Below, piece by piece: positions 325 to 52,070 of a stretch of 55,571 nucleotides of DNA. The notes under the pieces were generated by a model that made no database searches, had not been told where the DNA came from, and worked only from the letters and a program-made list of their open reading frames with translations. Source of the DNA: Escherichia phage vB_EcoM_JL1; the sequence record OR791690.1; one strand, 5' to 3'. Position numbers and translations under genes: made by a program. The number at the start of each line of letters is the position of its first letter. The first letter of the stretch is position 1.

Positions 325-344
325 TTCACATCCAACTAATGTTA
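325..344 (-). promoter_or_regulatory. Phage-promoter-like conserved motif (copy P1)
   Basis: plus ttcacatccaactaatgtta; minus-strand consensus AACATTAGTTGGATTTGAAG shared by about 12 sites. Confidence 0.4.
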
Positions 345-416
345 CAGGTGGCTACAATATTGAAGCCAGCTCTAAGATTAATTGAAACAAGAAAAGGGAG
401 CCGAAGCTCCCAAATA

Positions 417-617
417 TCAGAACGGTATCTCTGTATCGAAATAACCAGAATTGTGCAAATATGCATGCAGTAATACATGCGACTCTTGTTTATATTCTGC
501 TAACAACTCTAAGAAGTCTTTAGTCTCCTCCACTGTAGGACGAGATAAGTTGCTCATGTCACAGGTGTGATGAGGGTTGAAACAGTTTTCGATTTGATTG
601 ATTTGCATGGTATTCAT
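417..617 (-). CDS. Small hypothetical protein (66 aa) ending in SSB-tip-like DTEIPF
   Basis: minus-strand ORF downstream of RNAP gene; C-terminus ...GYFDTEIPF resembles the E. coli SSB tip DDDIPF. Confidence 0.5.
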   Translation of the reverse strand: MNTMQINQIENCFNPHHTCDMSNLSRPTVEETKDFLELLAEYKQESHVLLHAYLHNSGYFDTEIPF

Positions 618-665
618 TATAAGTCTCCAAGTTTGTGGTCATCCTTGACCAATTAGTGTTACTGA

Positions 666-2780
666 TTATTGACAGAAGTAGTAAGCGTGTTCGCTCATCA
701 GAAGCTCTTCAGTTACGATGTTCTCATGATACATCTTGATGCCACCAAGTTGCTTAGACAGATTCTCGAATTGATTGTTGGTTACAAAGATTTCAACATA
801 TGCTGCACGAATAACTTCCATCATACGTGGAGCATCTGCCAAACAGCAACGGAAACAATCATGGATTGAAGTGAAGCCACGAAGACCAGCTTCTTTAGCT
901 TTAACTGCAACAGTACGAGCAACAAGTGCATCAATGCCCTGAATGTAGTTAACAACGAAAGTACGCTTGAATTCTTCTTTAGTTGGATTGGATTCACGAA
1001 TGGTCCAAGGCTTATTCTCCTGAATCTGACCAAAGATAACACGAGTTTGGGAGTCAACACGAATGCTGAATGCCTCACAGATTTCACGAGATGGGAAGCA
1101 AGGCTTCATTACAACCTGACCATCAGTGTGACGATATGTGATGTACTCTTTACCAAGTTCAACACAACGGTTGTATGCAGCATCAGCAGCTTTCTCAATG
1201 AACATGTTAATCTTAGCACCCAATGCGTTATGGATTGCTTCCACACACAGTTCAGCAAATGCCTCAGCTTTCTCCATAGGAATCTGGAGTGCTTCTGTCA
1301 TGTAGCTGATGAAGTCAGAAGAACCAGTCAATGCAGCTTTACCACCACCGTATTGGATAGCCATGTACGGAGTTTTGATAAACTTACGACCAGCTTTCGG
1401 ATTCAAGAATTCATCCATGATTTCAGGAGATGGTTTCATTGAAGACTTGTCCAGCAGCTTCAACAGTTCACGAAGACTCAACTGGTATGGGTCAGATGCT
1501 TTAGTCTCAGAATCAACCAGACCTGTTGCACGAGCCATTTCCATATTACCAGCAATGAATGCCAGATATTGAGTACCAGAACATTTAGCATCTAAGCCAA
1601 AGCCTACACGAGAATCACATTCACCTGTAGTCTCGAACTTGAACCAATCCAGAGCCAGACGAACATAAGTGAATGGCTTGGAAGGACGTTCAGCTTTAGG
1701 CATGTTCATCATGCGAGCAAGTGAACCAGCTGGATTCTGAGCAACATAAGTTAAACGCTTAGCACTGCACCATTCACCACCAGAAATATCTTCCAGCTCT
1801 GCCATAAACATGTTGTATGCAATGGTAGTAGAACCATCTTCGTTAAACTTCTTAACGATGTTCTCAACATTGTGAGAATACAAGCAACGAGCAAAGTCAG
1901 ATGATTGTGGGTTAGGACCAGCACATGCTACATGATACAGACGACCACGGTTATCAGCAAAGTAGTCAGAATACAGTGTGTCCTGATTCATCATTGCTAC
2001 AGCATTGTTCCAAACATGGAGTTCAGTCTGGATTGCTTCTGGCATCTGCAAGCCACCATAGGTACGTTGTTCAAGCATGGACTGAATGATGCGAACCATC
2101 TCAGTCTCCACATGGTACTCAGTATCTTGCAGGAATTCGATTGCAGCTTTCAGAGTTTTGGATGGCTTAACTTTGCCACCTTTAACGAAAGGCTTGCGAC
2201 GAGATTCAGATGTAACACGCTCAGTGAATGGCACTGCGGTATCTTTGGTTGTAACCAGCTCAACCCATGTGTCAGTTTGTTGGAACGACTTATCTTCGTT
2301 CATGGTGATGAAGCCAAAGTGCTTAGCCAGGCCAATGAGGTTGATAGCTGGGTCAACATAGTGCATTGCTTTCAAATCATTGTTGTAACGGTTGGCATCA
2401 GCAATTGAAGCAGAAGCCAGCTCAACCATTGCAATTGCAGGAACAACATCATCACGAGTGAATGAGGTCATCATCTTAAAGATTGCAAGAGCAGCAATAG
2501 CACAGGTCTGAGGTTGCATGTAGTTCTGTTTCTCTTTGGCACGATATACCAGAGCAGTGATAGCAGGGACAACGGATTTGATAGTTTGAGTTGAGATAGT
2601 TGCCATTTTGCGAGTCTCCAATTTAGTTTCGGTTTTAGTTTCGGATTGTGTAGCGGAGGTGATTTCATCTACCATCTGGTTGCAACGGTCCATCGTATCG
2701 AGCACGTCTTTCCAACCGTGGCCTTCTTCTTTTAAGCGAGCACCATCAGCAGCCAGTGTACGATATTCTTCATTAGTCAT
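666..2780 (-). CDS. T7-like single-subunit DNA-dependent RNA polymerase (704 aa, compact)
   Basis: motifs DAKCSGTQYLAF (T7 DGSCSGIQHFSA), KTPYMAIQYGGG, SIHDCF (T7 HDSFGT); ATG at 2780 with GGAGA RBS. Confidence 0.85.
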   Translation of the reverse strand: MTNEEYRTLAADGARLKEEGHGWKDVLDTMDRCNQMVDEITSATQSETKTETKLETRKMATISTQTIKSVVPAITALVYRAKEKQNYMQPQTCAIAALAIFKMMTSFTRDDVVPAIAMVELASASIADANRYNNDLKAMHYVDPAINLIGLAKHFGFITMNEDKSFQQTDTWVELVTTKDTAVPFTERVTSESRRKPFVKGGKVKPSKTLKAAIEFLQDTEYHVETEMVRIIQSMLEQRTYGGLQMPEAIQTELHVWNNAVAMMNQDTLYSDYFADNRGRLYHVACAGPNPQSSDFARCLYSHNVENIVKKFNEDGSTTIAYNMFMAELEDISGGEWCSAKRLTYVAQNPAGSLARMMNMPKAERPSKPFTYVRLALDWFKFETTGECDSRVGFGLDAKCSGTQYLAFIAGNMEMARATGLVDSETKASDPYQLSLRELLKLLDKSSMKPSPEIMDEFLNPKAGRKFIKTPYMAIQYGGGKAALTGSSDFISYMTEALQIPMEKAEAFAELCVEAIHNALGAKINMFIEKAADAAYNRCVELGKEYITYRHTDGQVVMKPCFPSREICEAFSIRVDSQTRVIFGQIQENKPWTIRESNPTKEEFKRTFVVNYIQGIDALVARTVAVKAKEAGLRGFTSIHDCFRCCLADAPRMMEVIRAAYVEIFVTNNQFENLSKQLGGIKMYHENIVTEELLMSEHAYYFCQ

Positions 2781-2842
2781 GATAAAGTCTCCAATTGATT
2801 ATGATTTAACTGAAACGGATTAGACTTGCGTAGCCTATTCAT

Positions 2843-2862
2843 AATCACAACCAACTAATGGT
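2843..2862 (-). promoter_or_regulatory. Phage-promoter-like conserved motif (copy P2), 63 nt upstream of RNAP start
   Basis: plus aatcacaaccaactaatggt. Confidence 0.4.
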
Positions 2863-2995
2863 GAGGTGAGCACACTACAACAGCGTACTCTGATTGCCTT
2901 TGACCTTGACTTATAAGCGAAGCGCCTAACTTGGTGTTGTTTGAAAGCCGATAGGCTGTAGGAAAAAGTTGGAGTAGGGACCGTATTTAAGTCCG

Positions 2996-3424
2996 ATAGG
3001 ACGTTGGGCTTCTGCTCCCCGGCCCCCTAAAAATAAAATTAATATTGCCACAATTCGAGTCTCGTTAATATCGAACAAATTCGAGTCTCCAATATCGTAA
3101 CAATTTTAGTCTCATTAATTCTGTAGCAATATTGAAAATAAAAAAAAAATTATAAAAAAATTATTTCATAGCCAGACAACTGTTCGAACAAATTTCGGCG
3201 AGATAACTTCTCCGAAGGAGATACAGCTGACCGACCATGAACGAATTACTATCCAGGTACAGTTGACCGACCATGTACCATTTGGTTTTGAACTTTACGC
3301 ATTCCTAATATTACTCTTAATATTGTAGCAATATTGGGAATAAATAAATATTTAATTTACTTGTCTTATTCTAGCTCAAAGAGAAACGACGCTAACGCAT
3401 CGAATCTCTTCTCGCATATAATCG
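2996..3424 (-). promoter_or_regulatory. AT-rich non-coding control region between nrdB and RNAP gene, with direct repeats
   Basis: no ORF; three ~25-bp direct repeats (GAGACTCGAATTTGTTCGATATT-like, minus strand), two copies of CATGGTCGGTCARCTGTAYCT, long A/T tract 3131..3170, repeated CAATATTGCTACA. Confidence 0.6.
3149..3179 (-). promoter_or_regulatory. Candidate sigma70-type promoter upstream of RNAP gene
   Basis: minus strand TTGTCT then about 18-19 nt then TATAAT; spacer slightly long. Confidence 0.3.
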
Positions 3425-5079: not shown

Positions 5080-5096
5080 TCGAGTTCCTTATCATT

Positions 5097-5438: not shown

Positions 5439-5446
5439 TGTTTTCC

Positions 5447-13184: not shown

Positions 13185-14296
13185 TAAAATGACTCCATTG
13201 CCATTCCACTGTTAGCATACATTTCCTGCCACGCAGCTTCCTTACCACCCATCATTGTATTGCCACCCAATATTGCAGTGATTGATGTTTGATAAATGGT
13301 TGAGTGGGTCGAGCCTTTATGCACAACTTCCATGATAAAATATTTGTCTTCAACAGCCCACCGGAATACGGACTGGTCTGTGTTAAGAACAATACCTTCC
13401 CCTGAAACAGAAGTTACACCGTTAGCAAGCAACTTCTTCTTACCGAGCAAAGGAGATACATCAAGAATCATACCTGGTTGGAAAGATGGGTTTAGGAATG
13501 TATTTAAAGTGTAGGTGCAGATTCCAGCAACAGGGTTGCCAATAACAGAGTCTTCATCCAGCTGGACTGGCTCTCTGTCTTTAGACATTCTGTTTACAGC
13601 ATCTTTATCACCAAAGGTATCTGGGAAGATTTGCACTTCACCAGTTGTAACAGTGTATAACAAATTGTATTCGCCAAGCATGTTGCGAAATTCGTGTAAG
13701 AATGTGTCATGGAACACACGCCCACGAGGCATCACTGTTTCAAGGACCGAATCTTCAACACCAAATGTAGAGATGGTATTGAACCCATAGTCAGAACACA
13801 TTGAGCGCATTGCATCAATGAGTTTGGTTCCAGGCTTGATTGCAGTCAACTGTTTGAAATCAGTGGATGCACCATATGCCTTGGAAATACAAAACAATTG
13901 TGTTACATGTTCAGGAGGCTTTCTATAACCAACTGCGTTTGTAATAATCCCGGAGAAGATGGTTGGTAGTGATGTAGACATTGTTACGCGGTCACTCTGT
14001 TCAGCCTTCTGGCCAAACTTCTTAGCACCGCCACTAGAAGTCCCGCCACTAGAGTCTGAACGTTCATCTTCTGCATACCCTGCACGAATTTCAATATACA
14101 TATCTCCGTAGGACTTGTCTTGGAGGAACTTAACTTCTTCTAACGACAAGTTAAACAGAGTTATGTTTGCTGTATCGGCGGGCCACCCAACAGTAGAACG
14201 GACTTCAAAATCAATACGATGTGATTTAAATACCGTCCGAATACTTGGGTCTTCTTTACGTGAAACTATTACTTCAACTCTGCGAAGCCACGGCAT
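13184..14296 (-). CDS. Tail protein (DNA-circulation-protein-like by position)
   Basis: 370 aa; immediately downstream of tape measure gene. Confidence 0.4.
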   Translation of the reverse strand: MPWLRRVEVIVSRKEDPSIRTVFKSHRIDFEVRSTVGWPADTANITLFNLSLEEVKFLQDKSYGDMYIEIRAGYAEDERSDSSGGTSSGGAKKFGQKAEQSDRVTMSTSLPTIFSGIITNAVGYRKPPEHVTQLFCISKAYGASTDFKQLTAIKPGTKLIDAMRSMCSDYGFNTISTFGVEDSVLETVMPRGRVFHDTFLHEFRNMLGEYNLLYTVTTGEVQIFPDTFGDKDAVNRMSKDREPVQLDEDSVIGNPVAGICTYTLNTFLNPSFQPGMILDVSPLLGKKKLLANGVTSVSGEGIVLNTDQSVFRWAVEDKYFIMEVVHKGSTHSTIYQTSITAILGGNTMMGGKEAAWQEMYANSGMAMESF

Positions 14297-14369
14297 TGCA
14301 ATATACCTATTGAAATTAATACATATTCAACTAATGTAAAAGGAAAGCTGGGGATTTCTCCCCAACTCC

Positions 14370-23450: not shown

Positions 23451-24038
23451 TTAAGACTTCGGCGTAATAGCAATTTCTTTAGTTGCAGTCACGCTGGAGG
23501 TTGTTTTGTTTGTTGCCTTAATCGTGGCAGAGGTATCAGTGGTCGTCTCATTCAGAACAGTTACAGTACCATTTGCAGCCACAGAAACGCCAGTCACAGG
23601 AGGTGTAACAGTGTAGGCATAATCTGTTGCTGTAGAATTACCAAACTTGAACAGCTTGTCTACAGTTACAGTGGCATCAGCAGAAGACGCATCAGCCGTT
23701 ACAACTCCAGCTACAGCAGACACCGTAGGTGCAGGAGGTTTAGGCTTAATCGTAATCACTTTAGATGCAGTTACACCAGGCTCTGTTTTATTCGTTGCCT
23801 TGATTGTCGCAGAAGTGGCTGTAGTCGTTGCACTTAGTACAGTCACAGTGCCGTTTGCCGCCACAGAAACACCAGCTACAGCAGGAGTAACGGCGAAGTT
23901 GTAATCTGTTGCTGTAGAGTTCTCAAACGTAAACAGTTTGTCTACAGTTACAGTGGCATCAGATGCAGATGCGTCCGCAGTTACAGTACCTGCTACAGCA
24001 GACACCGCAGGAGCTGGAGGTGGCGTTACGGCTTTGGG
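23451..24038 (-). CDS. -1 frame C-terminal extension with two Ig-like (Big_2-type) repeats, reached by programmed frameshift
   Basis: -1 frame open from slippery site 24032..24038 to TAA at 23451; encodes tandem ~90-aa repeats (SAVAGTVTADASASDATVTVDKLF...). Confidence 0.55.
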   Translation of the reverse strand, partial: PKAVTPPPAPAVSAVAGTVTADASASDATVTVDKLFTFENSTATDYNFAVTPAVAGVSVAANGTVTVLSATTTATSATIKATNKTEPGVTASKVITIKPKPPAPTVSAVAGVVTADASSADATVTVDKLFKFGNSTATDYAYTVTPPVTGVSVAANGTVTVLNETTTDTSATIKATNKTTSSVTATKEIAITPKS

Positions 24039-33268: not shown

Positions 33269-34135
33269 TTAGAACGGCATACCCGTACCGCCAGCAGCGC
33301 CACCTTCTGCTTCACGCTGTGCTTTTGCAGCAGCCTGTGCTTCCAGTTCAGCTTTCATAGCTGCATCAACTTCTTCATCAGAAGCCTGATTCGGTACAGC
33401 GCCTTCATCGGCAGGTTTACCGCCTAACAGTGCAGACAGCTTAGTCTTGTAGAAATCAACACCGGAAGTAATGCGGTTCTTGATTGCATACGGAGATTCG
33501 CCACCTGGCAGTTTGTTGAATACTTCCAGGTCCGGCTCAGACATGTCGAAGAAGACAGTCGGGTTAACCAGTGCTTTAGCTTCTTTCTTCTCTTTGGATT
33601 TCATCGGGGAGAAGGTAGCAACTTTGTTTGCAACCTGGCCAGCATTCTTACCGGACTGCTTGGTATACTGAACAATGCCAACAATCAGAGGTTCGCCCAA
33701 CCAATCCGGCAGGTTCTTGGCAGGATGGCCCTGAATGCCTTGTTCCAGATTAGGTTTAACTTCCAGTGCATCAATCGCCTTAGCGAATTTGTAGATGTGG
33801 GAGTTCTCGCCCATGAAGCCGTCAGCATTATAGGTAAACTCAAAGTCAAACCAACGCGGCTTGTCTTCAAGATTCTTCGCCATCATGATGCCGTCATCTT
33901 CGTCTGGGTCTTGAACCATGACCATTTTACCTTCACTGTCAACCTCTTTCATGTACTCGTCGAGCAGTTCGAAAGTAACCAGAAGTTTCAAGGACGGGGT
34001 AGGATATTTAGCAGAACCAGGCTGTAAGCCCAGGTCGATAATACGGCAAACACGAGCAGGATAACCACCCGCTTCCAGTAATGGTGCAGCAGAAGGAGTC
34101 TTGTTCGAGGCCAGTGTAGGAGCAGCAAATGCCAT
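33269..34135 (-). CDS. Putative ssDNA-binding protein with C-terminal tail ending MPF
   Basis: 288 aa between exonuclease and polymerase genes; acidic/Ala-rich tail ...GGTGMPF. Confidence 0.4.
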   Translation of the reverse strand: MAFAAPTLASNKTPSAAPLLEAGGYPARVCRIIDLGLQPGSAKYPTPSLKLLVTFELLDEYMKEVDSEGKMVMVQDPDEDDGIMMAKNLEDKPRWFDFEFTYNADGFMGENSHIYKFAKAIDALEVKPNLEQGIQGHPAKNLPDWLGEPLIVGIVQYTKQSGKNAGQVANKVATFSPMKSKEKKEAKALVNPTVFFDMSEPDLEVFNKLPGGESPYAIKNRITSGVDFYKTKLSALLGGKPADEGAVPNQASDEEVDAAMKAELEAQAAAKAQREAEGGAAGGTGMPF

Positions 34136-34165: not shown

Positions 34166-34438
34166 TTAGTCGACCTGCAACATAGCAAGTCGGAAGTCAT
34201 ATCCAACTAATGCTTCGGACAGCTCTTCAAATGAAGACGTTGCCGAAATTAAAGTTTGGATGTTTTTGAATGTCTCATCATTGAATGCTTGAGACTGTGT
34301 GTCGGACGAATAGAATACTTTGTCCTTAATCTTTTCAAGGAACGCCATTACAGCGTCCTTTGCGAGAACTTCGGAATCGGTAGCAAACATGTGGTGCTCT
34401 GATTCCTGTACATCAAAAATAGAATATACAGTTTTCAT
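34166..34438 (-). CDS. Hypothetical acidic protein
   Basis: 90 aa; start overlaps polymerase stop. Confidence 0.45.
   Translation of the reverse strand: MKTVYSIFDVQESEHHMFATDSEVLAKDAVMAFLEKIKDKVFYSSDTQSQAFNDETFKNIQTLISATSSFEELSEALVGYDFRLAMLQVD
34196..34215 (-). promoter_or_regulatory. Phage-promoter-like conserved motif (copy P4, inside upstream ORF)
   Basis: plus gtcatatccaactaatgctt, ~61 nt upstream of 34135. Confidence 0.3.
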
Positions 34439-38855: not shown

Positions 38856-38911
38856 TTGCTCTCCGGTTCATATGGTGGGAGATTAATTAGCTCCGCACCA
38901 TGATAATGGTA

Positions 38912-39142
38912 TTATTTTAATGACGCCTGAATTTCTTTCATCGACGCATTTAGTACAGAACGCTTTTCATATTCGCGTTGATTGTACGTGCTTGTCAGTG
39001 CTTCCGCAGCTTCTATTGACAAGATTGCAAAACCACCAAAGGCATTGCGAACTTCTTCAATATCCATGTGCAGGACTTCACTTGTAATTTGGCTTGCTAT
39101 TACGGCCTTATAAATCTCTTCGGCAATTTCAGCAGTTTTCAT
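38912..39142 (-). CDS. Hypothetical protein
   Basis: 76 aa minus-strand ORF. Confidence 0.4.
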   Translation of the reverse strand: MKTAEIAEEIYKAVIASQITSEVLHMDIEEVRNAFGGFAILSIEAAEALTSTYNQREYEKRSVLNASMKEIQASLK

Positions 39143-39644
39143 GTTTCTCTCCAGTTAAAATTTAAGTAAGTGTCCTGACGTGAACTGTTACAAAACACTT
39201 ATTAAATTTGATTCGAACCGCCCAAGTGAATCAGCCTTGTTTATGGGGACCATCGGGGAAAAGTATAAACCCGCTTAATGCTCGCATCATGTTTGAACAT
39301 TAAGAACCCTCGACTTGCATATTTCATGTGTATAGGAACATAGTCTGGATTTTGAATCCAGCTAACTTCGGGATGAGGAGTAACCCAAACGAAAGCCTGA
39401 ACTTTCTTTCTGCACAACACAATCAGCGCAACTAAGCCGTATCGCTACGGTATGCCAGACGCTCGCATGAGCCTTTTGAACAGAGGCATAACTGTTGGAG
39501 GTAAAGTGGCGGATTCGGCGAACGTTAGTTCACAATTACACAGTCGGCCTCGGATGCTTCATCCCTATCCCATCGTGCAGGTTTCATTAACTCTACGAAT
39601 CCATTGAATTTGGTGGCCGATACGTTGGCCAGACGCTGTGATAT

Positions 39645-39845
39645 TTAACAAGGGTCGCTGTCAGGTTCTGTCAACTTCTTGCGAAGGAATGCATCCCCTG
39701 CGTTATACAGAAATGCGAAGTAAAGTTGCTTTGCCTTATGTCGGCTACAACCCAAGGCTACCTGAATTTCTTGATACTGATATGTACGCACCTCATTATT
39801 AATGATTGCGTTGCGAATGATTGCACGAATGCTGATTTTGTCCAT
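39645..39845 (-). CDS. Hypothetical protein
   Basis: 66 aa minus-strand ORF. Confidence 0.35.
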   Translation of the reverse strand: MDKISIRAIIRNAIINNEVRTYQYQEIQVALGCSRHKAKQLYFAFLYNAGDAFLRKKLTEPDSDPC

Positions 39846-40228
39846 AGAAGACTACCTTATACAGTTGAGGTTGCGGCCTTTACGCGGCCAACGTGCCATT
39901 AATGCTGGCAAGACAGAGCTAACGTTCTCAAGCACTTTTGTCTAGGTCTGTTCCCGGCCACTGTTCTAGGAAGTGACTACCTGAACTTTCTCGCGTTCAA
40001 TGCGAGGCAGCAATTTTAATTGTTATGCCCAGAGCAACTTGCAGGTTTGTTTGAGTTGGAGTCCTGCTTCCAAACGCATGGGCTTACACCATCATCGCAA
40101 CAAGTTGCTAGAGTCTCGTTATTTAAAGTCGCGCACTCCCTCGACTTTTGGGTAGTTATAGACGTCCGTCTTGGCTGTCGTCACCTTGGTCAGTCTTTTA
40201 CACCACCAACTAGCTAGGCCATGTTCAC

Positions 40229-40438
40229 TCACTGTCGGGTAAGTTTCGAACACTTTTGTGCCCACGTTTCATTGTGGACTAAAATCTGTGTTTTGGTTTC
40301 GCGTGATAAGATTTTCACTTCTGCAACATCCAAATAGATTGGTTGTGCAATTAAGCAGTAATCACTTACGAACCCACTTTGAGAGCAACTCACTATCGAC
40401 ATTGCTATCAGAACTGCTAGACACTTCTTTCTGAACAT
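40229..40438 (-). CDS. Lipoprotein, o-spanin-like, partly embedded in upstream gene
   Basis: MFRKKCLAVLIAMSIVSC lipobox; starts inside 40362..40598 in another frame; no clear RBS. Confidence 0.3.
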   Translation of the reverse strand: MFRKKCLAVLIAMSIVSCSQSGFVSDYCLIAQPIYLDVAEVKILSRETKTQILVHNETWAQKCSKLTRQ

Positions 40439-40598
40439 GCGTTTTAATCTCGATAGATTCTTTAATGGAGTCGAATTGCTTCTCTTTGGCTTCCTGACGC
40501 TCCTCGGCTTTGCCTGAGCTTTTGCCTTTGAGGAACACTGCAATAAGAATACCAAATGCAGTCAGGACGCCAAGAACTATTGATTTAAGCTGTTGCAT
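40362..40598 (-). CDS. Membrane protein, i-spanin-like
   Basis: N-terminal TM helix, charged periplasmic-type remainder; AGGTGA RBS. Confidence 0.4.
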   Translation of the reverse strand: MQQLKSIVLGVLTAFGILIAVFLKGKSSGKAEERQEAKEKQFDSIKESIEIKTHVQKEVSSSSDSNVDSELLSKWVRK

Positions 40599-40779
40599 AA
40601 ATCACCTTAGATGGCGCACGCACCACTTGAGCAGTCGTTATCGCCCTCACCAGGAACGATTGCTTCTTCGTCCTGCTTCTTCTTAAGTTCTTCAATTGCT
40701 TCTTCGGCAGCACCGAAGTCTAAATTATCAAGTGCATCAAAATCCATAAGGACTCCAGTATTGCGGTTATTAAAGTGGG

Positions 40780-40872
40780 TGGACGAGGTTGGATTCGAAC
40801 CAACGACACATCTGCCTAACAGATTGCTCTACCTGACTAAGCTCTGGAGCAGACCTTCTGAGCTACTCGTCC
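40780..40872 (-). tRNA. tRNA gene with ~20-nt insertion; anticodon probably UAG (Leu) by manual fold
   Basis: acceptor stem GGACGAG/CTCGTCC, T-arm GTTGG-TTCGAAT-CCAAC, D-arm GCTT-AGTCAGGTA-GAGC, anticodon loop GUUAGGC; extra TAGCTCAGAAGGTCTGCTCCAGA between acceptor strand and D-arm. Confidence 0.6.
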
Positions 40873-41860
40873 AAAGAATAAGAGGGTTTTGATAACGCAG
40901 GTTTTCCCGAACTGCGAGGCTTGTAGAATCCGTGAGCCGCCTACTGTGTTTTGACATAACGTGGGATTGATGGTCCCGACTCACTTCATCTCAGGTACGA
41001 GGCACTACTTTGCGAGTGCAAGCAGGTGTTGAACCCAAGTACCAACAGGCAACCTGATTTAATCTACCTTTGTAGATACCATCGGTTATGAGCAGTTTAT
41101 TTCCATACTCAGGGCAACTCACTTTAGGGTGAATTTAGGTTACGCAGTGCAGCTTCGAAGTCGCTGCCACAGGCTTGAGATTCCTGTGTGGAGGGAAATC
41201 CAGAGGAGCACTTCCCCAAGGAGTTACGTTTCATATTGGCATAGCTTCTCACACTAAGCCAATTGAAGACATTCCAGTGTGCTCGTCCGTCCTCTAGAAA
41301 TATCCAACTGCATAATTAAGTTTGTACTCTGTCACATCCCCACGCGCACTGAGGGACTTAAGCCTGCATTGCATCGCAGAATACAAATTAATTATTGCTC
41401 CGATTTATTAATCACATCTCGAAGCCACAATGCGCCAAATTTGGTTACGTGGGATTGGAAGACCACGGAGAGGACTTAAATTTAATTAAGCCGCAACTCG
41501 CATTTCAGAATCATTTGCATTTATTTTAAATGAATAAAACAGTCGCAATAACTCCAGGCAGTTTAGGCCCGTCGTAAGACTCAGAAAACTACTTCAATTT
41601 GTACACAACAAATTTCCCAACATTGCCTTCCGTCGAAGGCTCATGCACTGGTGTTTGAATTATGCACAAATTGAAATAACTTCAATGAACACTCTTGTCT
41701 GGGCCATGAGATTGGGCATCGGCCTACCTCCCAACTCTAATCACAAGAATGCTCATTGAAGCCCACTCTTCCTTTCAGAATGGGTTCAAGGCAGCACCGG
41801 AAATATTCCAGTGCATGCCAGATCGATTTAGCTTAGTCTCTCAAGTTTGCCATCGGCAAC

Positions 41861-42199
41861 TTAGAATACCGGAGCTTCTTCAACAGCAGCTTCGGCAGCT
41901 TCGGCAACACTTGCGTCAGCAACTTTAGCTTCTTTCGGAGTATCGAACTTAGTACGCTCAACTTCCGGCTCACCAGCTTCAACCCACGGCAGGTAGAATG
42001 CCAGGAACTGCTCGATGGTGTTCTTCTGCATGGAGCGAGAACGGTCGATAGCGCCAACGGTGTTCAGGTACGCTTCGGCAGCTTTCTCAATTTTAGCACC
42101 GTTTTCCAGTTTGAAGTCATGTGCATTACACTCTGCTTCGGTCAGGAACAGGGAACCATCGTTAGCTTCGTACTGAGTTACGGTTACAATCTTAGCCAT
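41861..42199 (-). CDS. Hypothetical protein
   Basis: 112 aa; downstream of promoter-like motif P5. Confidence 0.5.
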   Translation of the reverse strand: MAKIVTVTQYEANDGSLFLTEAECNAHDFKLENGAKIEKAAEAYLNTVGAIDRSRSMQKNTIEQFLAFYLPWVEAGEPEVERTKFDTPKEAKVADASVAEAAEAAVEEAPVF

Positions 42200-42322: not shown

Positions 42323-42997
42323 TCAATATCTATTGAATCGTTCTAGTGTTTTATTTACTAAATCCTTTGTCTCAGCGACAGTGAGTTCAGTGATGATTGA
42401 TTCGTCATAACCCTCAATCTGGATTGCTACAAAACGCCCAACTCCAGTTACAGTAAGTCGGTTTGTTCTGTCACGAACAACTACACCAGCTTCTTGCGCG
42501 ACTGCTCGCAGCAATTTCCAGCGTAAAGTTCGATTTGGCACAGCAAAGCCCTTTGCCGAGAACAACTCTTTCATGAGTTCTCCAAGACAAACAGCTTCAA
42601 TGTTTTGTCCTCTTCCAACTAATTCTTGCAACAGGCACAGTGTCAACATTTCTAAATTGTTGAAGTGCCCAGCGCGCTCCAAATTAAAGAACTCTGGAGG
42701 AACAGTTGAACGAGATTTAACAGCTTGCTTATATGCACGTTCTTCTTCCTGTGCAGCAAGCATCAGCATCTCTGGCTTAATGTACTTCATAGCAGAGAAG
42801 CCAGCGCGTGTGGCTTTAATTATGCGACAAGCCTCTTTCATCTTGTAGCGTTGCCACTCACCGCGCTTCGATTCTGGATTAAAATGGACCCACATAATGA
42901 TAACATCTTCCTTGGCAAGATAGACGGCATCATTATCATTGAGCCATTGCTTACACGTTGATAGTGCAATCTCTTTGTCATCATCATGATAAGACAT
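42323..42997 (-). CDS. Hypothetical protein
   Basis: ORF open to 43054; likely ATG at 42997 (MSYHDDD...). Confidence 0.45.
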   Translation of the reverse strand: MSYHDDDKEIALSTCKQWLNDNDAVYLAKEDVIIMWVHFNPESKRGEWQRYKMKEACRIIKATRAGFSAMKYIKPEMLMLAAQEEERAYKQAVKSRSTVPPEFFNLERAGHFNNLEMLTLCLLQELVGRGQNIEAVCLGELMKELFSAKGFAVPNRTLRWKLLRAVAQEAGVVVRDRTNRLTVTGVGRFVAIQIEGYDESIITELTVAETKDLVNKTLERFNRY

Positions 42998-42998
42998 T

Positions 42999-43325
42999 TT
43001 AGTGGCCTTGTAGGATACGTTTGTTCGCAGTTTCTGCGTCGATTCCCAAATCAACTAATGTCACCAAGCACTGCGAAATCCGCTCTTGCGCAGCTTTCTC
43101 CAGAATTTGGTATTTTTCGTTGTCAACGCCTAACACATTCTTGGCATGAATGAGTGTAGCCATCAGACCGTGCCCCAAAGCAACAGCTTGCATTGCCTGG
43201 AGTTCAAAGTTAATTGTGATGCCAGCGAGTTCGTGCTCTTTCTGGATAATCTCAATCAACTCTTCTTTAGATTTGTCCTGTAAGTTCAAAATGGAACTCC
43301 GTAAATCGGTTGGTTTGTTGTCCAA
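42999..43325 (-). CDS. Hypothetical protein
   Basis: 108 aa. Confidence 0.45.
   Translation of the reverse strand: MDNKPTDLRSSILNLQDKSKEELIEIIQKEHELAGITINFELQAMQAVALGHGLMATLIHAKNVLGVDNEKYQILEKAAQERISQCLVTLVDLGIDAETANKRILQGH
43045..43062 (-). promoter_or_regulatory. Phage-promoter-like motif (copy P6, inside upstream ORF)
   Basis: plus cccaaatcaactaatgtc. Confidence 0.3.
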
Positions 43326-43606: not shown

Positions 43607-44157
43607 AGGAACTCTCCAATTTTCGATTCAGTGTTTGTGACTTCTCTTCTCATCTTTTGGCCCAGGAACAGGCCACAGGGTAGCGCAGGAAGGCCGAAAA
43701 TCGGGCCACTGCCTACCGTTTGTGTCAATTCTGGATAACTGCATTGGCGAAGGGTTACTCCCGTTAGGGTGCGATACGCTAATCACATGAGTGTCGTCGC
43801 CTTGCGGCTCAGGCGTGTCACAGAGGCTTTGCAACCCTTCCCAATACATTCACCCAATCCACCCGCTTTGGCATAGCTGGTGGCGCGGTTTTGTGCGGAT
43901 TATGCCACTCTAAGCCCTGTTTGTCCGACTTCCTCAGAGCACCAGCAGCTTGTGGCACAAACCTATTTTCGAATGACTAACATAAGCATGAGGCATAACC
44001 CTCTAATTATTCAGCCCTAACAGCTTGCTTATTTAGTTCCAATTCATCCCAATACATCGCCTATAACAAGTGAATAGCTTTCTGTGGATAAGTATTCCGG
44101 CCCTTTGGCCTATGTTAAAAGATAAATGTATATGATGGAAACATTCCATCGAAAAGA

Positions 44158-44222
44158 ACTTTGTAGAACGAATCGAACGTTCTCACACGTCTTGGTACCA
44201 GACGGACTACCTAGTTACAAAG
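44158..44222 (-). ncRNA. tRNA-like minihelix (D-arm-less)
   Basis: acceptor CTTTGTA/TACAAAG, T-arm GAACG-TTCGATT-CGTTC, one internal hairpin; 65 nt; 20 nt downstream of motif P7. Confidence 0.3.
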
Positions 44223-44241
44223 CTCTTATCTGATGTTGTTT

Positions 44242-44260
44242 CTTCAATTCCAACTAATGT
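44242..44260 (-). promoter_or_regulatory. Phage-promoter-like conserved motif (copy P7)
   Basis: plus cttcaattccaactaatgt. Confidence 0.4.
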
Positions 44261-44271
44261 AATTTTGTGCT

Positions 44272-44362
44272 GTACTCTCTTCCCAAGTTGTCCAGACTTG
44301 GTTGTTTGAGGCTGCGCTTATTGCAGTGGACTTCCTCTACAATTGCTAGTGGAAAAGAGTAC
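44272..44362 (-). ncRNA. Candidate structured small RNA between motifs P8 and P7
   Basis: 12-bp inverted repeat arms (gtactctcttcc / ggaaaagagtac) enclosing ~67 nt with an internal hairpin; no ORF. Confidence 0.25.
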
Positions 44363-44379
44363 AGACAGAATTACACTAA

Positions 44380-44399
44380 TTCAATTCCAATTAATGTTT
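44380..44399 (-). promoter_or_regulatory. Phage-promoter-like conserved motif (copy P8)
   Basis: plus ttcaattccaattaatgttt. Confidence 0.35.
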
Positions 44400-44465
44400 C
44401 AGAATTATTCCAATATTCCAAACAAAAAGAATAATAAGAATAAATTAAATAAATGAAGAAAGTGC

Positions 44466-44495
44466 TTGACACCCATTTGGCGATAAGTGTATAAT
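44466..44495 (+). promoter_or_regulatory. Near-consensus sigma70 promoter on the non-coding strand
   Basis: TTGACA (44466..44471), 18-nt spacer, TATAAT (44490..44495), TG immediately upstream of the -10. Confidence 0.5.
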
Positions 44496-44520
44496 GCCTT
44501 TCTTCCCTAAGTGGTCAGAA

Positions 44521-44539
44521 TCAAATCCCACTAATGTTT
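44521..44539 (-). promoter_or_regulatory. Phage-promoter-like conserved motif (copy P9)
   Basis: plus tcaaatcccactaatgttt. Confidence 0.4.
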
Positions 44540-44606
44540 CAGACTAAAGCCGAAGGCCAATGCGAGCACAAAACCCGCTTGGCACTTCGAAGAAACCCGC
44601 CTGGAA

Positions 44607-47850: not shown

Positions 47851-48222
47851 TTAGAACGGAATGTCGTCGTCGAAGTCTTTCGGTTCGTTCGGGTTATAGT
47901 TGCTCTGCTGTTGCTGGGTAGGTGCTTGCTGTTGTGCAGAAGGTTGCTGGCGTTGCTGTTGCTGTTGAGCGGCAGCTTGAGGTTGAGCTTTAGCTTTAGC
48001 TTTCTCTTCACGCTTACGCATCATTTCATCAACCTGTTCCTGAGTCATGATGGTTAATGCAAGTGAGGTAAACTCATTACCATTTGCTTGCTTGTTCCAG
48101 CCAGACACCCAATACCAGATTCCGTCAACGTTAATACGCCCACGAATGTCGGGATGTTTTGGGTCTTTCTTGAAGCCGTTAGGACCGATGATGCCAGTGT
48201 TTACATCTGAATATTGTTCCAT
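47851..48222 (-). CDS. Small protein with SSB-like linker and C-terminal tip (...NEPKDFDDDIPF)
   Basis: C-terminal 25 aa closely resemble the E. coli SSB tail (Q-rich linker, DFDDDIPF); N-terminal ~70 aa unrelated to the SSB OB fold. Confidence 0.6.
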   Translation of the reverse strand: MEQYSDVNTGIIGPNGFKKDPKHPDIRGRINVDGIWYWVSGWNKQANGNEFTSLALTIMTQEQVDEMMRKREEKAKAKAQPQAAAQQQQQRQQPSAQQQAPTQQQQSNYNPNEPKDFDDDIPF

Positions 48223-48295
48223 GATTAAGATTCTCTTAAGTTAATTACAGTTTAAGTTTCAGTGACATTGCTAACCACGGAATAGCTTTGTCCCT

Positions 48296-48315
48296 CTTCA
48301 AATCCAACTAATGTT
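48296..48315 (-). promoter_or_regulatory. Phage-promoter-like conserved motif (copy P10)
   Basis: plus cttcaaatccaactaatgtt; shares ~30 nt with P11. Confidence 0.45.
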
Positions 48316-48354
48316 AGATTAATCAGGAACACTCAATGAATGCTCCTTGTTAAT

Positions 48355-48666
48355 TTAACGTTGCTTCTTCGCCCACTCTATTGCGGCCATTATTGTATCG
48401 CCATGACAGCGTGCTGGGGCACACCAACAAACTAAATCTTTGCCATCTAATGCCAGCAAATCATCTATTGTTACTTCACCAGATTTAATTTGTTTCCACA
48501 AATACTTGCGATACTCTTCGCACACGTAGTCTCTCTGACTTTCTTTAAACATTTTAAAAGGATTGTGGAATTTCTTGTTTCCAGCGATTCCCTTCATATC
48601 TCGACCGATATATACTGCGTTGTTGTGAACACCTTTAACTTTCGAATAGTTCAAAACTCTTGCCAT
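48355..48666 (-). CDS. DUF4326-like protein
   Basis: C-terminal DLVCWCAPARCHGD motif; ATG at 48666 with GGAG RBS (track start 48696). Confidence 0.5.
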   Translation of the reverse strand: MARVLNYSKVKGVHNNAVYIGRDMKGIAGNKKFHNPFKMFKESQRDYVCEEYRKYLWKQIKSGEVTIDDLLALDGKDLVCWCAPARCHGDTIMAAIEWAKKQR

Positions 48667-48685
48667 CTTTATTCTCCAATTATTA

Positions 48686-48704
48686 CTCACAATCAACTAA
48701 TGTT
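48686..48704 (-). promoter_or_regulatory. Phage-promoter-like conserved motif (copy P11), ~20 nt upstream of gene start
   Basis: plus ctcacaatcaactaatgtt. Confidence 0.45.
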
Positions 48705-48744
48705 AGATTAATCATGGACACCTACAGGAGATGCCCATTGTTAA

Positions 48745-49032
48745 TCACATAGATTTGGAAATAGGAATTGGGTCGATTGATGATTCAGGTTTATACCAAC
48801 TAACTTCACCAGAATCTTTCACAAGTTCCCAATTATCGGAGAATGTACGATAACATAAATTGCGGTTATCGTCATTAACGACAAAACCCAAAGGAGATTG
48901 AATATACGCACCGAGTGTACCGTTGTTACGAGGAACTCCGTCACCACGACCTGCGACGATTTTGTACTTCTTACCGTAGGTAAAGCTGTAATTTGTTTTA
49001 CCAACATAACGTAAGATTGAATTTTTGTTCAT
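48745..49032 (-). CDS. Hypothetical protein
   Basis: 95 aa. Confidence 0.45.
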   Translation of the reverse strand: MNKNSILRYVGKTNYSFTYGKKYKIVAGRGDGVPRNNGTLGAYIQSPLGFVVNDDNRNLCYRTFSDNWELVKDSGEVSWYKPESSIDPIPISKSM

Positions 49033-49262
49033 TGCTTTAGTTTCTCCAAAGCTTCTAAGACTGAGTTTCCAGAACCACTAATTACAAGCGTCTCTTCTGG
49101 AATGTTCAAGGATATGTAAGAGAACGTCCACTTTACAATTGTCTTTTGGGCGAAATACGAATACTTGTCAGACAATTCAATATCCTGTCTGGCATCATTT
49201 AGCAAGAACTCCCGCCCATTTATAGAGAGTCGCTTAAACATTTCTATGTAATTCTTACCCAC
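49029..49262 (-). CDS. Hypothetical protein
   Basis: 77 aa. Confidence 0.45.
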   Translation of the reverse strand: MGKNYIEMFKRLSINGREFLLNDARQDIELSDKYSYFAQKTIVKWTFSYISLNIPEETLVISGSGNSVLEALEKLKQ

Positions 49263-49545
49263 GTTTCACCTTCTCCCACTTGGATAAGCCGCCTTCGAGG
49301 TTGAAGATACGGTTGCAACCAGATTCGTCTTTAATGACAAACTGAGTTCCGGTTAATTGAATTGGCTCAAGTGCACCGAATATCACCTTAGGACCAGACA
49401 AGCTGGTGGCAAGAACTTCATATGCTTTGCTTGGGCAAATGTCAAAAGCAAAGTCACGAGTGTAAACTAAGTCACCAACTTTTAAGTATGCTGGCAACAA
49501 GCGACCTGTGGCTGGGTCACGTTGTAAACGAGTACGTTGTTTCAT
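49255..49545 (-). CDS. Hypothetical protein
   Basis: 96 aa. Confidence 0.45.
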   Translation of the reverse strand: MKQRTRLQRDPATGRLLPAYLKVGDLVYTRDFAFDICPSKAYEVLATSLSGPKVIFGALEPIQLTGTQFVIKDESGCNRIFNLEGGLSKWEKVKRG

Positions 49546-49608
49546 AAATGCTCCAAGTTAATTAATAATATTCAGCAACCACTCTCATTACAAAAGTGGT
49601 TGAGGAAA

Positions 49609-49815
49609 TTATTTAACTTCTTCCCAGGACCAGATACTGCCTTTTAACGGAACTTTTTCACCAATTCTCCAATATGGCCTTCCGTTTGCGTACGTTCGGT
49701 CGCCAATGTCCGAGATAATTATTAAGTTGCCTACAAGCTCTCCTCCAATCACGTCACCAACTTTCGGAGAGTGTTCAGACGAAGAAGTTGATTTAATACA
49801 TTTAAACTTTGTCAT
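49609..49815 (-). CDS. Hypothetical protein, paralogue of next gene
   Basis: starts MTKFKCIKS, like neighbour MKFKCVAS. Confidence 0.45.
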   Translation of the reverse strand: MTKFKCIKSTSSSEHSPKVGDVIGGELVGNLIIISDIGDRTYANGRPYWRIGEKVPLKGSIWSWEEVK

Positions 49816-50039
49816 TGCAATAAACCTTGTTCACAAATATCTGCAAATTCTGCTTCATGGTCACGCTGCCATGTCCAGAATGCACCATTCATAGGAACTA
49901 CAGCACCTTTACGGAATGCTGGAGAAACATTCTCAGCAGATTTAGTCACTTTAAATTCCAAAGGTGAGATAGCCTCACCCTCAACAATGAATCCAACTGG
50001 AACATAATCTTTGGTTGAAGCAACACATTTAAATTTCAT
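49812..50039 (-). CDS. Hypothetical protein, paralogue of previous gene
   Basis: likely start at internal ATG 50039 (MKFKCVAS...). Confidence 0.4.
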   Translation of the reverse strand: MKFKCVASTKDYVPVGFIVEGEAISPLEFKVTKSAENVSPAFRKGAVVPMNGAFWTWQRDHEAEFADICEQGLLQ

Positions 50040-50292
50040 GATATAAAACACCGATTTCAGATTTAAGATTAAATTCACGAAAGAAATCCATTGTTACAAA
50101 ACGGATTTTACCTTCATCATCAACTACGTTACAGGAGATTTCGGAGTGGACCATACGGCCCAACTTCAAAGCAACTTCTGACAGGTTTGCTTCACCAGTG
50201 CCAGAAATAACTTCATAGATTTTATATGGTGTAAAGCCGCTTAAAGAGTTATTACGGCTTGGGACAATCATCATGCCTGTTCTAGTAGCCAT
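50029..50292 (-). CDS. Hypothetical protein
   Basis: 87 aa. Confidence 0.45.
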   Translation of the reverse strand: MATRTGMMIVPSRNNSLSGFTPYKIYEVISGTGEANLSEVALKLGRMVHSEISCNVVDDEGKIRFVTMDFFREFNLKSEIGVLYHEI

Positions 50293-50310
50293 AATAACTC
50301 CTAAGTTTGA

Positions 50311-50619
50311 TTATTTGGTTGATTCTGCTGGTGGCTTCATGTCTTCAATTTGTTGAAGTGCGTCTGCCAACTGTTCTTGGAGCTTGTTCTTCTGCTCCAT
50401 CAATTCATCGTAGGCGTTTTGTTCTGCCTCACGAAGTTCACGAAGAGTGTCAATTGTTTCATTAGCCTGAGACAACTGCTCTTCAACAAGATTGATGTGG
50501 TCCATTACAAAAGCCAACAGACTCACATCAACACGCATATATGCAATTACATCAGCATTTTCCGGAATGGAATTCTTAGCAACATTTGCAATATTTGAGA
50601 ATTCGAGTAAAGAAGCCAT
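50311..50619 (-). CDS. Hypothetical acidic coiled-coil protein
   Basis: 102 aa. Confidence 0.45.
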   Translation of the reverse strand: MASLLEFSNIANVAKNSIPENADVIAYMRVDVSLLAFVMDHINLVEEQLSQANETIDTLRELREAEQNAYDELMEQKNKLQEQLADALQQIEDMKPPAESTK

Positions 50620-50633
50620 TTAATTACCTTAGT

Positions 50634-50714
50634 TTAGATTATGAAGCTGCCCACAACGAGCAGCACCAAAGGGAACATTAAAGCACAGAATACTAATTTC
50701 TTGATAATAGACAT
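50634..50714 (-). CDS. Small hydrophobic peptide (26 aa)
   Basis: MSIIKKLVFCALMFPLVLLVVGSFII; start overlaps upstream stop (TAATG); below ORF-track length cutoff. Confidence 0.35.
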   Translation of the reverse strand: MSIIKKLVFCALMFPLVLLVVGSFII

Positions 50715-50887
50715 TATTTCACCAGGAAGTAGAGAGCAATCAGGAATCCAACACATGCAATGATTGTTGGCATATAATTATCAATTTTACGATATTGACG
50801 TTCGACTGGCTTCTTGCCTTTGATGGCATCCATCAGTTCTTGATGATTTATTTGCTGCATGAATGTGTTGAATTGCTGGTCGTTCAT
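50714..50887 (-). CDS. Small membrane protein (57 aa)
   Basis: GGAGG RBS; C-terminal hydrophobic helix IIACVGFLIALYFLV. Confidence 0.4.
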   Translation of the reverse strand: MNDQQFNTFMQQINHQELMDAIKGKKPVERQYRKIDNYMPTIIACVGFLIALYFLVK

Positions 50888-50900
50888 TTTGCCTCCGGAA

Positions 50901-51068
50901 TTAATACAACACGTTTCTACAGAACTTTAGGATTTCGCCCGCTTTCTTAACTTCTTTGGCAACAGTTCGCGCAGGTAGTCGGGAAAATCGTTTCTCCTGA
51001 CGCTTTACTGTAGCGTAGCTAAATCCGAAATGTAGGCTGTACATTGCTGACTCTAGAATCTTGCTCAT
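50901..51068 (-). CDS. Small protein (55 aa)
   Basis: GGAG RBS; ATGA overlap with upstream ORF. Confidence 0.35.
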   Translation of the reverse strand: MSKILESAMYSLHFGFSYATVKRQEKRFSRLPARTVAKEVKKAGEILKFCRNVLY

Positions 51069-51229
51069 TTAACACTCCAATTGCCAAATACCAGATTAAC
51101 GATTTTGGCCACCTTACGTGCTGGCATACGAGGATTTGCAGCTCTTGCCAATTTCTTAGCCTTACGCTTTGAAGCACCGTACATAGCCATATACGTGACC
51201 GTTTTGGTCATATATTTTAATTTCTTCAT
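51065..51229 (-). CDS. Small basic protein (54 aa)
   Basis: Lys/Arg-rich; ATGA overlap with stop of 51226..51492. Confidence 0.35.
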   Translation of the reverse strand: MKKLKYMTKTVTYMAMYGASKRKAKKLARAANPRMPARKVAKIVNLVFGNWSVK

Positions 51230-51492
51230 TTTAAGTGTGGCCCACCTTCCATAAAGCTGGACATGAAATTGTTTGTGATGCCTCGGATTACCTTATCTGT
51301 GAGAACATCTTCATAAAACTGTTTGTTAGTGATTTCAATACCAAACTCCTCCTTGATACGAACCACTAACTCATTTGTTGAAACATCAATCCAACCACCG
51401 TAGTTGACAACCAAACGCTCTTGGATGAATTCAATCTTTTCTTCATAGGAGGCCAGCTCGATTAAGTCAGGCTTCAATTTAAACTGTGTCAC
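51226..51492 (-). CDS. Hypothetical protein
   Basis: 88 aa. Confidence 0.45.
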   Translation of the reverse strand: MTQFKLKPDLIELASYEEKIEFIQERLVVNYGGWIDVSTNELVVRIKEEFGIEITNKQFYEDVLTDKVIRGITNNFMSSFMEGGPHLK

Positions 51493-51677
51493 TTGGCCCC
51501 CAGAATTTGGCTTAATGAACTGAACACGATTTCCTCATGTTCGTCAGGTGTACATGCATTGATGTATTCAAAGTCGTAACCAACAAACTTCTCCGCCCAC
51601 TGTTGCAAACGAAGTAAAGAATTGAAGTACAATCTTTGCTCCACACCATTTAACTTAAAGTAGACGATGAAGTCCAT
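51489..51677 (-). CDS. Hypothetical protein
   Basis: 62 aa. Confidence 0.4.
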   Translation of the reverse strand: MDFIVYFKLNGVEQRLYFNSLLRLQQWAEKFVGYDFEYINACTPDEHEEIVFSSLSQILGAK

Positions 51678-51692
51678 GTTTACTCCTATGTA

Positions 51693-51911
51693 TTAAACTT
51701 CAATTGGCTCTTGAACTAAATCAGAGGCTGAGATTTCTTTAAACTCCTCCTCGGTAAAAGTTCTCTCATTGTCATTTAATAAAACACCAATGTTAGAATC
51801 ACCAACGAATACAGCATTTACATTAATGTCATCTTCCAAAACTTTTTGCAGGTGTTCTCCACCACGCGTAAAGAAGATTGCACCATCTTCCAAATCTTTA
51901 AAACGAGTCAT
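51693..51911 (-). CDS. Hypothetical protein, first gene after the control region
   Basis: AGGAG RBS; preceded by hairpin. Confidence 0.45.
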   Translation of the reverse strand: MTRFKDLEDGAIFFTRGGEHLQKVLEDDINVNAVFVGDSNIGVLLNDNERTFTEEEFKEISASDLVQEPIEV

Positions 51912-51932
51912 TTTATTCTCCTAAGTTAAAAG

Positions 51933-51960
51933 AAATAGCCCACAAGATTGCAGGCTATTT
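51933..51960 (-). promoter_or_regulatory. 5' leader hairpin (terminator-like) just upstream of first early gene RBS
   Basis: minus AATAGCC-N12-GGCTATT followed by TCTTTT then AGGAG and ATG. Confidence 0.3.
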
Positions 51961-52052
51961 GTGACACAGCAAGTGCCGAAGAACTACAATGATTAGCTTG
52001 GAGACATAATCTCTCTAAAATCTGTCACAGAATTTACAGAGATTTGGTCTTA

Positions 52053-52070
52053 TTCACATGCAACTAATCG
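52053..52070 (-). promoter_or_regulatory. Degenerate copy of phage-promoter-like motif (P12)
   Basis: plus ttcacatgcaactaatcg. Confidence 0.25.

Follow-up and report, generated by a model that had tools for sequence, protein, structure and literature searches.

A conserved 20-bp motif is the probable promoter for the single-subunit RNA polymerase of Escherichia phage vB_EcoM_JL1

Escherichia phage vB_EcoM_JL1 encodes an RNA polymerase of the single-subunit type, which raises the question of the DNA sequences that this enzyme would recognise. The record OR791690.1, analysed here over its whole length of 55,571 nucleotides (the window), is a complete linear phiEcoM-GJ1-like coliphage genome (genus Carltongylesvirus, family Chaseviridae) presented as the reverse complement; all its genes lie on the minus strand, which is here the coding strand. 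An original prediction had described a family of about 12 promoter-like 20-bp motifs, all on that strand, and had read them as promoters for the phage polymerase or, alternatively, as a conserved processing or translation element. Judged from sequence, the motif is very probably a promoter for the phage's own T7-like polymerase. It is already known in sequence and kind, being the promoter prediction made for phiEcoM-GJ1 (GJ1 below), rediscovered in a sister genome. The evidence that supports the promoter signature can be summarised as (i) strand orientation; (ii) location in front of genes; (iii) an asymmetric block with an invariant G; (iv) conservation across four genera; (v) absence from Aeromonas phage pAh6-C.

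The 20-mer AACATTAGTTGGATTTGAAG has seven matches at up to three mismatches, all on the minus strand, against 0.02 expected. A 20-nt weight matrix was built from sites with the core CATTAGTTGG and compared with a background of 100 shuffled genomes, whose best score was 20.5 bits. The scan gives 13 distinct sites (15 with repeat copies) scoring 21.8-32.6 bits, every one above the shuffle maximum. All 13 are on the coding strand and the opposite strand reaches at most 12.9 bits throughout the window. This background-corrected search recovers all 12 copies first reported (P1 to P12 below) and adds a thirteenth, before the baseplate-hub gene, that had been missed. Given as the position of the C of CATTAG, the sites are at 341 (equal to 52917), 2860 (equal to 55436), 14336, 29130, 34212, 42292, 43060, 44259, 44396, 44536, 48313, 48702 and 52069; the terminase site (29130) is detected only by the matrix. 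Eight of the 13 fall outside mechanically called open reading frames (ORFs), which together cover all but 15% of the genome (P = 2e-4). If genes are taken as annotated in relatives, ten sites are intergenic, and each of the remaining three falls within the final 80 nt of the gene upstream, less than 80 nt from the next start codon. The spacing of 20-75 nt to the start codon first proposed is roughly right for eight genes (22-79 nt, counted from the invariant G), whereas one gene starts 144 nt away and four sites have no ORF close downstream.

The motif can be written (t/a)AACATTAGTTGGATnTG A, and the alignment of core sites has the consensus (t/a)AACATTAGTTGGATnTGA. Its information forms a continuous, asymmetric, non-palindromic block (C A T T A G T t G ... 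T G) of about 16-18 bp, from about -1 to +15, that ends in an invariant G located 14 nt after the C of CATTAG. Within it A1-T2-T3-A4-G5-T6, G8, T13 and G14 are essentially invariant and positions 9-12 variable. The late-region sites diverge most from the consensus (21.9 and 25.8 bits). The sites P10 and P11 were said to share about 30 nt and they do, including 21 identical bases (tgattaatctaacattagttg).

Conservation was followed through seven genomes, namely the window, GJ1 and Mangalitsa (Carltongylesvirus), 4HA13 (Sabourvirus), Okapia (Suwonvirus), Ep031 (Loessnervirus) and TH25, a close relative without an assigned genus. At 19 bits or above these seven genomes, from four genera, hold 65 sites on the coding strand and none on the opposite strand. 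The G is invariant in 58 of 58 sites, with A-T-n-T before it and A after it, and conserved RNA structures start 0-3 nt downstream. Searches anchored on the downstream sequence place the best matrix match at an offset of 0 to +/-21 nt in GJ1, Mangalitsa and TH25 for ten of 12 sites. The motif is thus kept at orthologous positions where the upstream flanks have diverged, for example after the polymerase region, before the SSB gene and before gp29. Some sites, in more than one genus, have a palindromic AATATT(G) about 11 nt upstream (341 and 44396; the gp29 sites of Okapia and Ep031); it could serve as an upstream element of the promoter or bind a regulator.

The polymerase gene (minus strand, 666..2780, with a copy at 53242-55356) encodes 704 aa and belongs to Pfam PF00940 (E 3e-19). 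Its DNA is 95-97% identical to that of Escherichia phages Bp10, SKA49, Mangalitsa and ST32 and related to that of phiEcoM-GJ1, all members of Carltongylesvirus in the Chaseviridae. A single-sequence search against the PDB gave no match; a profile of six Chaseviridae polymerases matches T7 RNA polymerase with E about 1e-7, aligning DxRGR, the Asp of motif A (LDAKCSG) and the Asp of motif C (IHDCF). The stretch SQTRVIFGQ aligns to IQTRLNLMFLGQ of T7, the start of the specificity loop, and the loop sequence FSIR(V/I)DSxTRVIFG is common to all four motif-bearing genera. The polymerase of pAh6-C (Nefertitivirinae) is 34% identical with a different specificity loop, and the motif is absent from that phage (best matrix match just 9.6 bits). 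A de novo motif search in pAh6-C returned coding repeats and a hairpin family (GGCTCTnCGAGCC) only, with no clear promoter, so the argument from co-variation of promoter and specificity loop is one-sided and half shown. The hairpin family itself, GGCTCTnCGAGCC(A)AAAG, occurs at 23740, 24497, 24531, 25084 and 28885, downstream of the polymerase gene in the early region of pAh6-C, and may be a family of terminators or of hairpin-type promoters. In the window the polymerase ORF has two candidate starts, 2606 and 2780, with AATTGGAGACT before each. Only some of the relatives examined (e.g. Bp10, SKA49, Mangalitsa) have residues that align to the first 58 of the 704-aa form, and the polymerases of GJ1, ST32, 4HA13, Okapia and Ep031 are forms of about 630-650 aa; motif site P2 lies upstream of the long form.

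Within the window the best evidence that the motif would mark a transcription start is a conserved RNA without an ORF, predicted to begin at the motif's 3' edge. It belongs to a cluster of three tandem sites: P7 (44520..44539, 26.8 bits; GJ1 promoter 4), P8 (44380..44399, 26.5 bits; the middle unit, found only in some relatives) and P9 (44243..44262, 29.1 bits; GJ1 promoter 5), all on the minus strand. The units that follow 44522, 44382 and 44245 fold with z-scores of -3.1, -4.3 and -4.4 against shuffles. The three RNAs predicted from them measure about 75, 105 and 105 nt. Directly after P9, 3 nt from its invariant G, starts a tRNA-like structured RNA of about 105 nt (44130..44245, minus strand). 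It folds as a cloverleaf whose acceptor-like stem is long; one hairpin has a loop that is variable and self-complementary, the T-arm has the loop UUCGAUU, and in an alignment of six phages ten of the 34 predicted pairs carry compensatory changes. The anticodon-like loop varies and always holds a self-complementary palindrome (GGUACC, CGGCCG, GCGGCCGC or GGCGCC), which suggests loop-loop dimerisation. Neither ARAGORN nor Rfam calls this RNA. A known tRNA or Rfam identity was rejected for the ORF-less units generally: ARAGORN finds none, Rfam none at gathering level, and the sole sub-threshold tRNA match lies away from them at 40788-40843. Many relatives, including GJ1, cover the cluster in part (63-84% of the query, in two pieces) and have two sites instead of three.

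Promoters of the T7 type (T7, T3, SP6, K11) are laid out from -17 to +1, and K11 AATTAGGG and SP6 ATTTAGG resemble the cATTAGTT of the window. Like the window sites, the class II/III promoters of these phages consist of one asymmetric motif, about 17-23 bp long, repeated many times in the same orientation as the genes. In both the 5' part is rich in A/T, and a further A/T-rich segment, in the window a putative melting segment, precedes a G that is +1 in the T7-type promoters and presumed to be so in the window; both often follow terminator or processing hairpins, and the polymerases share a Pfam family. In contrast to these systems, the window has no sequence identity in the specificity region, and its polymerase, at 646-704 aa against 883 aa in T7, is shorter and has diverged far. 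The phage here is a myovirus whose 3-kb terminal repeats include the polymerase gene, and this gene has a putative phage-type promoter of its own, unlike T7 gene 1, which only host polymerase reads. A block of about 17 bp, with ATnT, the invariant G and purines after it, matches the T7-type layout, from which we infer by analogy binding and initiation at the motif and the exact start nucleotide. The polymerase would bind the upstream duplex (AACATTAGTTGG) via the specificity-loop hairpin, melt the A/T-rich ATnT just upstream of the invariant G and initiate at this G or within 1-3 nt of it. The Chaseviridae are myoviruses with a T7-like polymerase, and the consensus with explicit predicted starts makes their promoter question directly testable; motif and polymerase could also supply a new orthogonal polymerase/promoter pair for biotechnology.

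Several observations weigh against the motif being the polymerase's promoter. A phage-type promoter before the polymerase gene leaves the first synthesis of polymerase unexplained; the coding strand of the window has no sigma-70 match of at least 10/12. The profile match to T7 is so distant that details drawn from the analogy may not transfer. There are just two sites for about 26 kb of late genes. The sites 43060, 34212 and 29130 overlap upstream coding sequence, and some sites may be non-functional; the weakest members (43060, and 34212 outside Carltongylesvirus and Sabourvirus) are those for which this may hold.

The alternative that survives best, itself improbable, is that the motif binds a phage-encoded activator or sigma-like factor that redirects host RNA polymerase, comparable to the T4 MotA box or late promoters, so that the phage polymerase would not be its reader. 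Orientation and placement upstream of genes would fit an activator-dependent host promoter too, AATATTG recurs about 11 nt upstream of several sites, and a coding strand so poor in sigma-70 promoters might mean that host polymerase needs help. Yet no -10-like TAnnnT box stands at a fixed distance downstream. A sigma-70 promoter at the motif itself was rejected by scans: among the matches listed, one weak 9/12 match (CTAACA-16-AATAAT, 48706-48679) overlaps the site at 48702 and the other sites have none. Blocks of this kind, 17 bp without a break and closed by an invariant G, are typical of single-subunit polymerases, and the presence of the motif appears to track the sequence of the polymerase specificity loop across subfamilies. 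No MotA-like or sigma-like gene turned up, though no systematic search was made.

Action of the motif in RNA, as an RNase III/RNase E-type processing site or as a translation or stability element in polycistronic transcripts, is less probable again. The motif does lie on the transcribed strand near gene starts, and hairpins adjoin several sites. When 100 nt around each site were folded, however, the motif paired differently at every site, nine of the 13 z-scores were above -2 and no common structure contained the motif, on which basis the processing-site reading was rejected. The start codon follows at anything from 22 to 144 nt and four sites lack a close downstream ORF, features that argue against the processing or translation element originally offered as the alternative. 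Each site has a separate GGAG-type ribosome-binding site, and the conserved RNA structure at P9 starts after the motif and excludes it. Equally remote is a DNA signal unrelated to initiation, be it a pause or termination site (cf. ATCTGTT of T7 class II), a replication iteron or a packaging repeat: the terminal repeat does include two sites, one at 135 bp from the genome end, and three tandem copies flank an AT-rich tract in a non-coding, origin-like region, but most copies are single, dispersed over 52 kb and immediately upstream of unrelated genes, the terminator-like hairpin/T-run elements are upstream and not downstream of the sites, iterons and pac sites are normally clustered, and the tandem cluster could serve as an origin and still consist of promoters, as the T7 primary origin does.

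The putative phage promoters of phiEcoM-GJ1 were reportedly published in 2008 (Jamalludeen et al., Appl Environ Microbiol 74:516). The GenBank entry NC_010106 (phiEcoM-GJ1; Jamalludeen et al. 2008), from whose features we took the published consensus, lists nine 20-bp 'putative phage promoter' features that are the present motif, and the same sequences are annotated as putative phage promoters in NC_079183. Phage SA91KD labels the same sites 'similar to promoter of phiEcoM-GJ1', an annotation copied from GJ1. The core CATTAGTTGG...TG of the window sites recurs in eight of the nine annotated 20-mers, which the window matrix scores at 24.7-29.8 bits; sequence (e.g. CGACATTAGTTGGATGTGAA, AAACATTAGTTGGAATTGAA) and strand are the same. 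The orthologous sites are those after the polymerase region, before gp03, the SSB gene, gp29, gp39 and the baseplate hub, and the tandem non-coding pair. The ninth, GJ1 'promoter 6' (AAGAATTAGTTGGAAGAGGA, intragenic), lacks the leading C and the TG, scores 13.8 bits and is probably a false positive. Against the nine sites of GJ1 the window has 13, the extras being those before the polymerase, terminase and DUF4326 genes, the third tandem unit and a weak gp28 site. All of these except the DUF4326 and third-tandem sites match in GJ1 too, where they have no annotation.

The profile of the Chaseviridae by the ICTV (2022) states that promoters 'have not yet been identified' (PMC12842549). The searchable literature yielded no transcript mapping or biochemical test of the motif promoters, and a full-text search with the core sequence returned unrelated primers only; their status is that of a long-standing, propagated prediction. 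What is added here are the sites without annotation in GJ1, the likely GJ1 false positive, the strand statistics over four genera and the link to a conserved structured RNA. As the motif was predicted in 2008, what is gained is consolidation and a more precise map rather than a discovery.

Stable hairpins, some with T-runs, often stand just upstream of the sites, giving an order of terminator then promoter, and such elements before several sites would punctuate the genome into units. We propose that the first unit would start at P2 (CACCATTAGTTGGTTGTGAT; 2844..2863, copy 55420-55439; minus strand, like every site; 24.7 bits), whose G lies 66 nt before the ATG of the RNA polymerase gene. It would comprise this gene, in a positive feedback, and a small ORF, up to a terminator-like hairpin (52987-52962). 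P2 is conserved in Mangalitsa, GJ1, TH25 and 4HA13, without annotation in GJ1, and its copy lies within the repeat, 135 bp from the physical left end. The hairpin, GGGAGCTTCGGCTCCC with a T-run (minus strand, 52962..52987, copy 386-411), is situated between the polymerase region and P1, about 45 nt upstream of the latter. P1 (TAACATTAGTTGGATGTGAA; 325..344, copy 52901-52920; 32.6 bits), also in the terminal repeat, is orthologous to GJ1 'putative phage promoter 1' and has about 850 nt without an annotated gene downstream. From it a second unit would run as a non-coding leader of about 850 nt to 1 kb across the inner repeat boundary. The stretch of about 1 kb that follows P1 (51912-52900, minus strand) carries no gene annotation in GJ1, Mangalitsa or 4HA13; it crosses the inner repeat boundary (52577) and includes P12.

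A third unit would lead from P12 (TTCGATTAGTTGCATGTGAA; 52053..52072; 23.4 bits; GJ1 promoter 2) into the early small genes. The first of these is gp03-like, with its ATG (51911) 144 nt downstream, and a hairpin with a T-run (51960-51923) lies between P12 and this gene. P11 (48686..48705, 27.1 bits) would then serve the DUF4326 gene (E 7e-22), whose ATG at 48666 is 22 nt away, and P10 (48297..48316; 32.6 bits, a perfect consensus; GJ1 promoter 3) the SSB gene, 77 nt away. After a further terminator would come the tandem units of P7, P8 and P9, without an ORF close downstream. SA91KD has a terminator annotated just upstream of P7, and the RNA predicted from P7 terminates in a hairpin and T-rich tract.

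P6 and P5, followed by the genes of the replication module, and P4 would be next. P6 (TGACATTAGTTGATTTGGGA; 43044..43063; 21.8 bits) lies inside the upstream ORF, 49 nt before the ATG at 42997. Of all the sites it is the least secure: the usual TG is without its T, and the score barely exceeds the shuffle maximum. P5 (42276..42295; 29.8 bits; GJ1 promoter 7), 79 nt before the ATG at 42199, recurs in each of the seven genomes at 15.5-30.5 bits (lowest in Ep031), beside upstream flanks that have diverged. P4 (34196..34215; 25.0 bits; GJ1 promoter 8) falls within the 3' end of the ORF 34166-34438 and 63 nt before the ATG at 34135. The gene downstream encodes a 288-aa protein of unknown function; the 'SSB-like' label first given to it belongs to the P10 gene, 47851-48222, which is the SSB (PHROG SSB family, E 6e-42). 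P4 is absent in Okapia and Ep031, so its conservation may partly reflect coding constraint.

The late genes would form two operons. The first, of about 15 kb, would run from P3 (29114..29133, 21.9 bits) through the terminase and the head and tail genes; the G of P3 is 25 nt from the ATG of the terminase large subunit (29091). P3 overlaps the 3' end of an upstream 61-aa ORF and is conserved in Mangalitsa and TH25, more weakly in 4HA13. The second, of about 11 kb, would run from the baseplate-hub site (14320..14339; 25.8 bits; GJ1 promoter 9) through the baseplate, fibre and lysis genes and nrdB to a terminator-like hairpin (3402-3377). The G of the hub site is 26 nt from the ATG at 14296, and a GGGGA/TCCCC hairpin with a T-run stands just upstream.

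The tandem cluster also contains a predicted signal for host polymerase. Between P7 and P8, on the plus strand and antisense to all genes, lies a perfect sigma-70 promoter (TTGACA-18-TATAAT, 44466..44495), the sole 12/12 consensus in the genome. Its hexamers and 18-nt spacing are kept in the window, GJ1, Mangalitsa, TH25, 4HA13 and Okapia (six phages, three genera) and it is absent in Ep031. That hexamers and spacing persist although the sequence between them has diverged is a clear mark of selection. The predicted start is near 44503, from which transcription would read through P7. Inside the cluster, at 44400-44460, is also a 55-nt AT-rich tract. We raise, as a doubtful possibility, that 44130-44600 is a composite control or origin module present across Chaseviridae genera. 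The proposed parts are two to three tandem phage promoters, small structured RNAs, the AT-rich tract and the antisense sigma-70 promoter, and the module would act either as a replication origin activated by transcription and primed from both polymerases or as a host-to-phage sense/antisense switch. The T7 primary origin (phi1.1A/phi1.1B and an AT-rich tract) likewise combines tandem promoters with an AT-rich tract, as found at 44243-44539, and can be compared with the window cluster, which stands at about 20% of genome length from the left end and goes beyond the T7 layout. Unlike the T7 origin, each unit in the window would encode a structured small RNA, and the embedded perfect antisense sigma-70 promoter has no T7 counterpart.

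The window begins and ends with a direct terminal repeat of 2,995 bp (1..2995 equals 52577..55571, with no mismatches). Its ends agree within about 5 nt with the PhageTerm-predicted ends of Mangalitsa (3,234 bp) and 4HA13 (3,120 bp), and terminal repeats have been demonstrated experimentally in the related phage PYps23T (PMC8762354); the repeats are thus genuine and the genome complete. Each repeat holds a complete RNA polymerase gene and two motif sites. Virion DNA therefore carries two copies of the gene and two extra promoter copies, and the sites 341 (52917) and 2860 (55436), the repeats being identical, are present twice.

Just outside the repeat, in the intergenic region 3040-3340 (minus strand), there are three tandem sigma-70-like repeats (GAGACTnnAATTnGTnnnnATATT) at 3040-3130, the counterpart of one of which is annotated in GJ1 as a host promoter. 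Their position outside the repeat places them upstream of the right-end copy of the polymerase gene only. Repeats of CAATATTGCTACA and of GGTCGGTCA(A/G)CTGTA occur in the same region, as do long A/T runs. All these elements may relate to early expression or packaging.

Away from the motif sites, the minus strand has a sparsely coding stretch of about 3 kb at 38900-41860. ARAGORN called no tRNA over the whole window; the sub-threshold Rfam match at 40788-40843 scores 27 bits against a gathering threshold of 29 and shows D, anticodon and T arms. It may correspond to the 95-bp tRNA-Arg annotated in GJ1 with the remark 'may contain an intron'.

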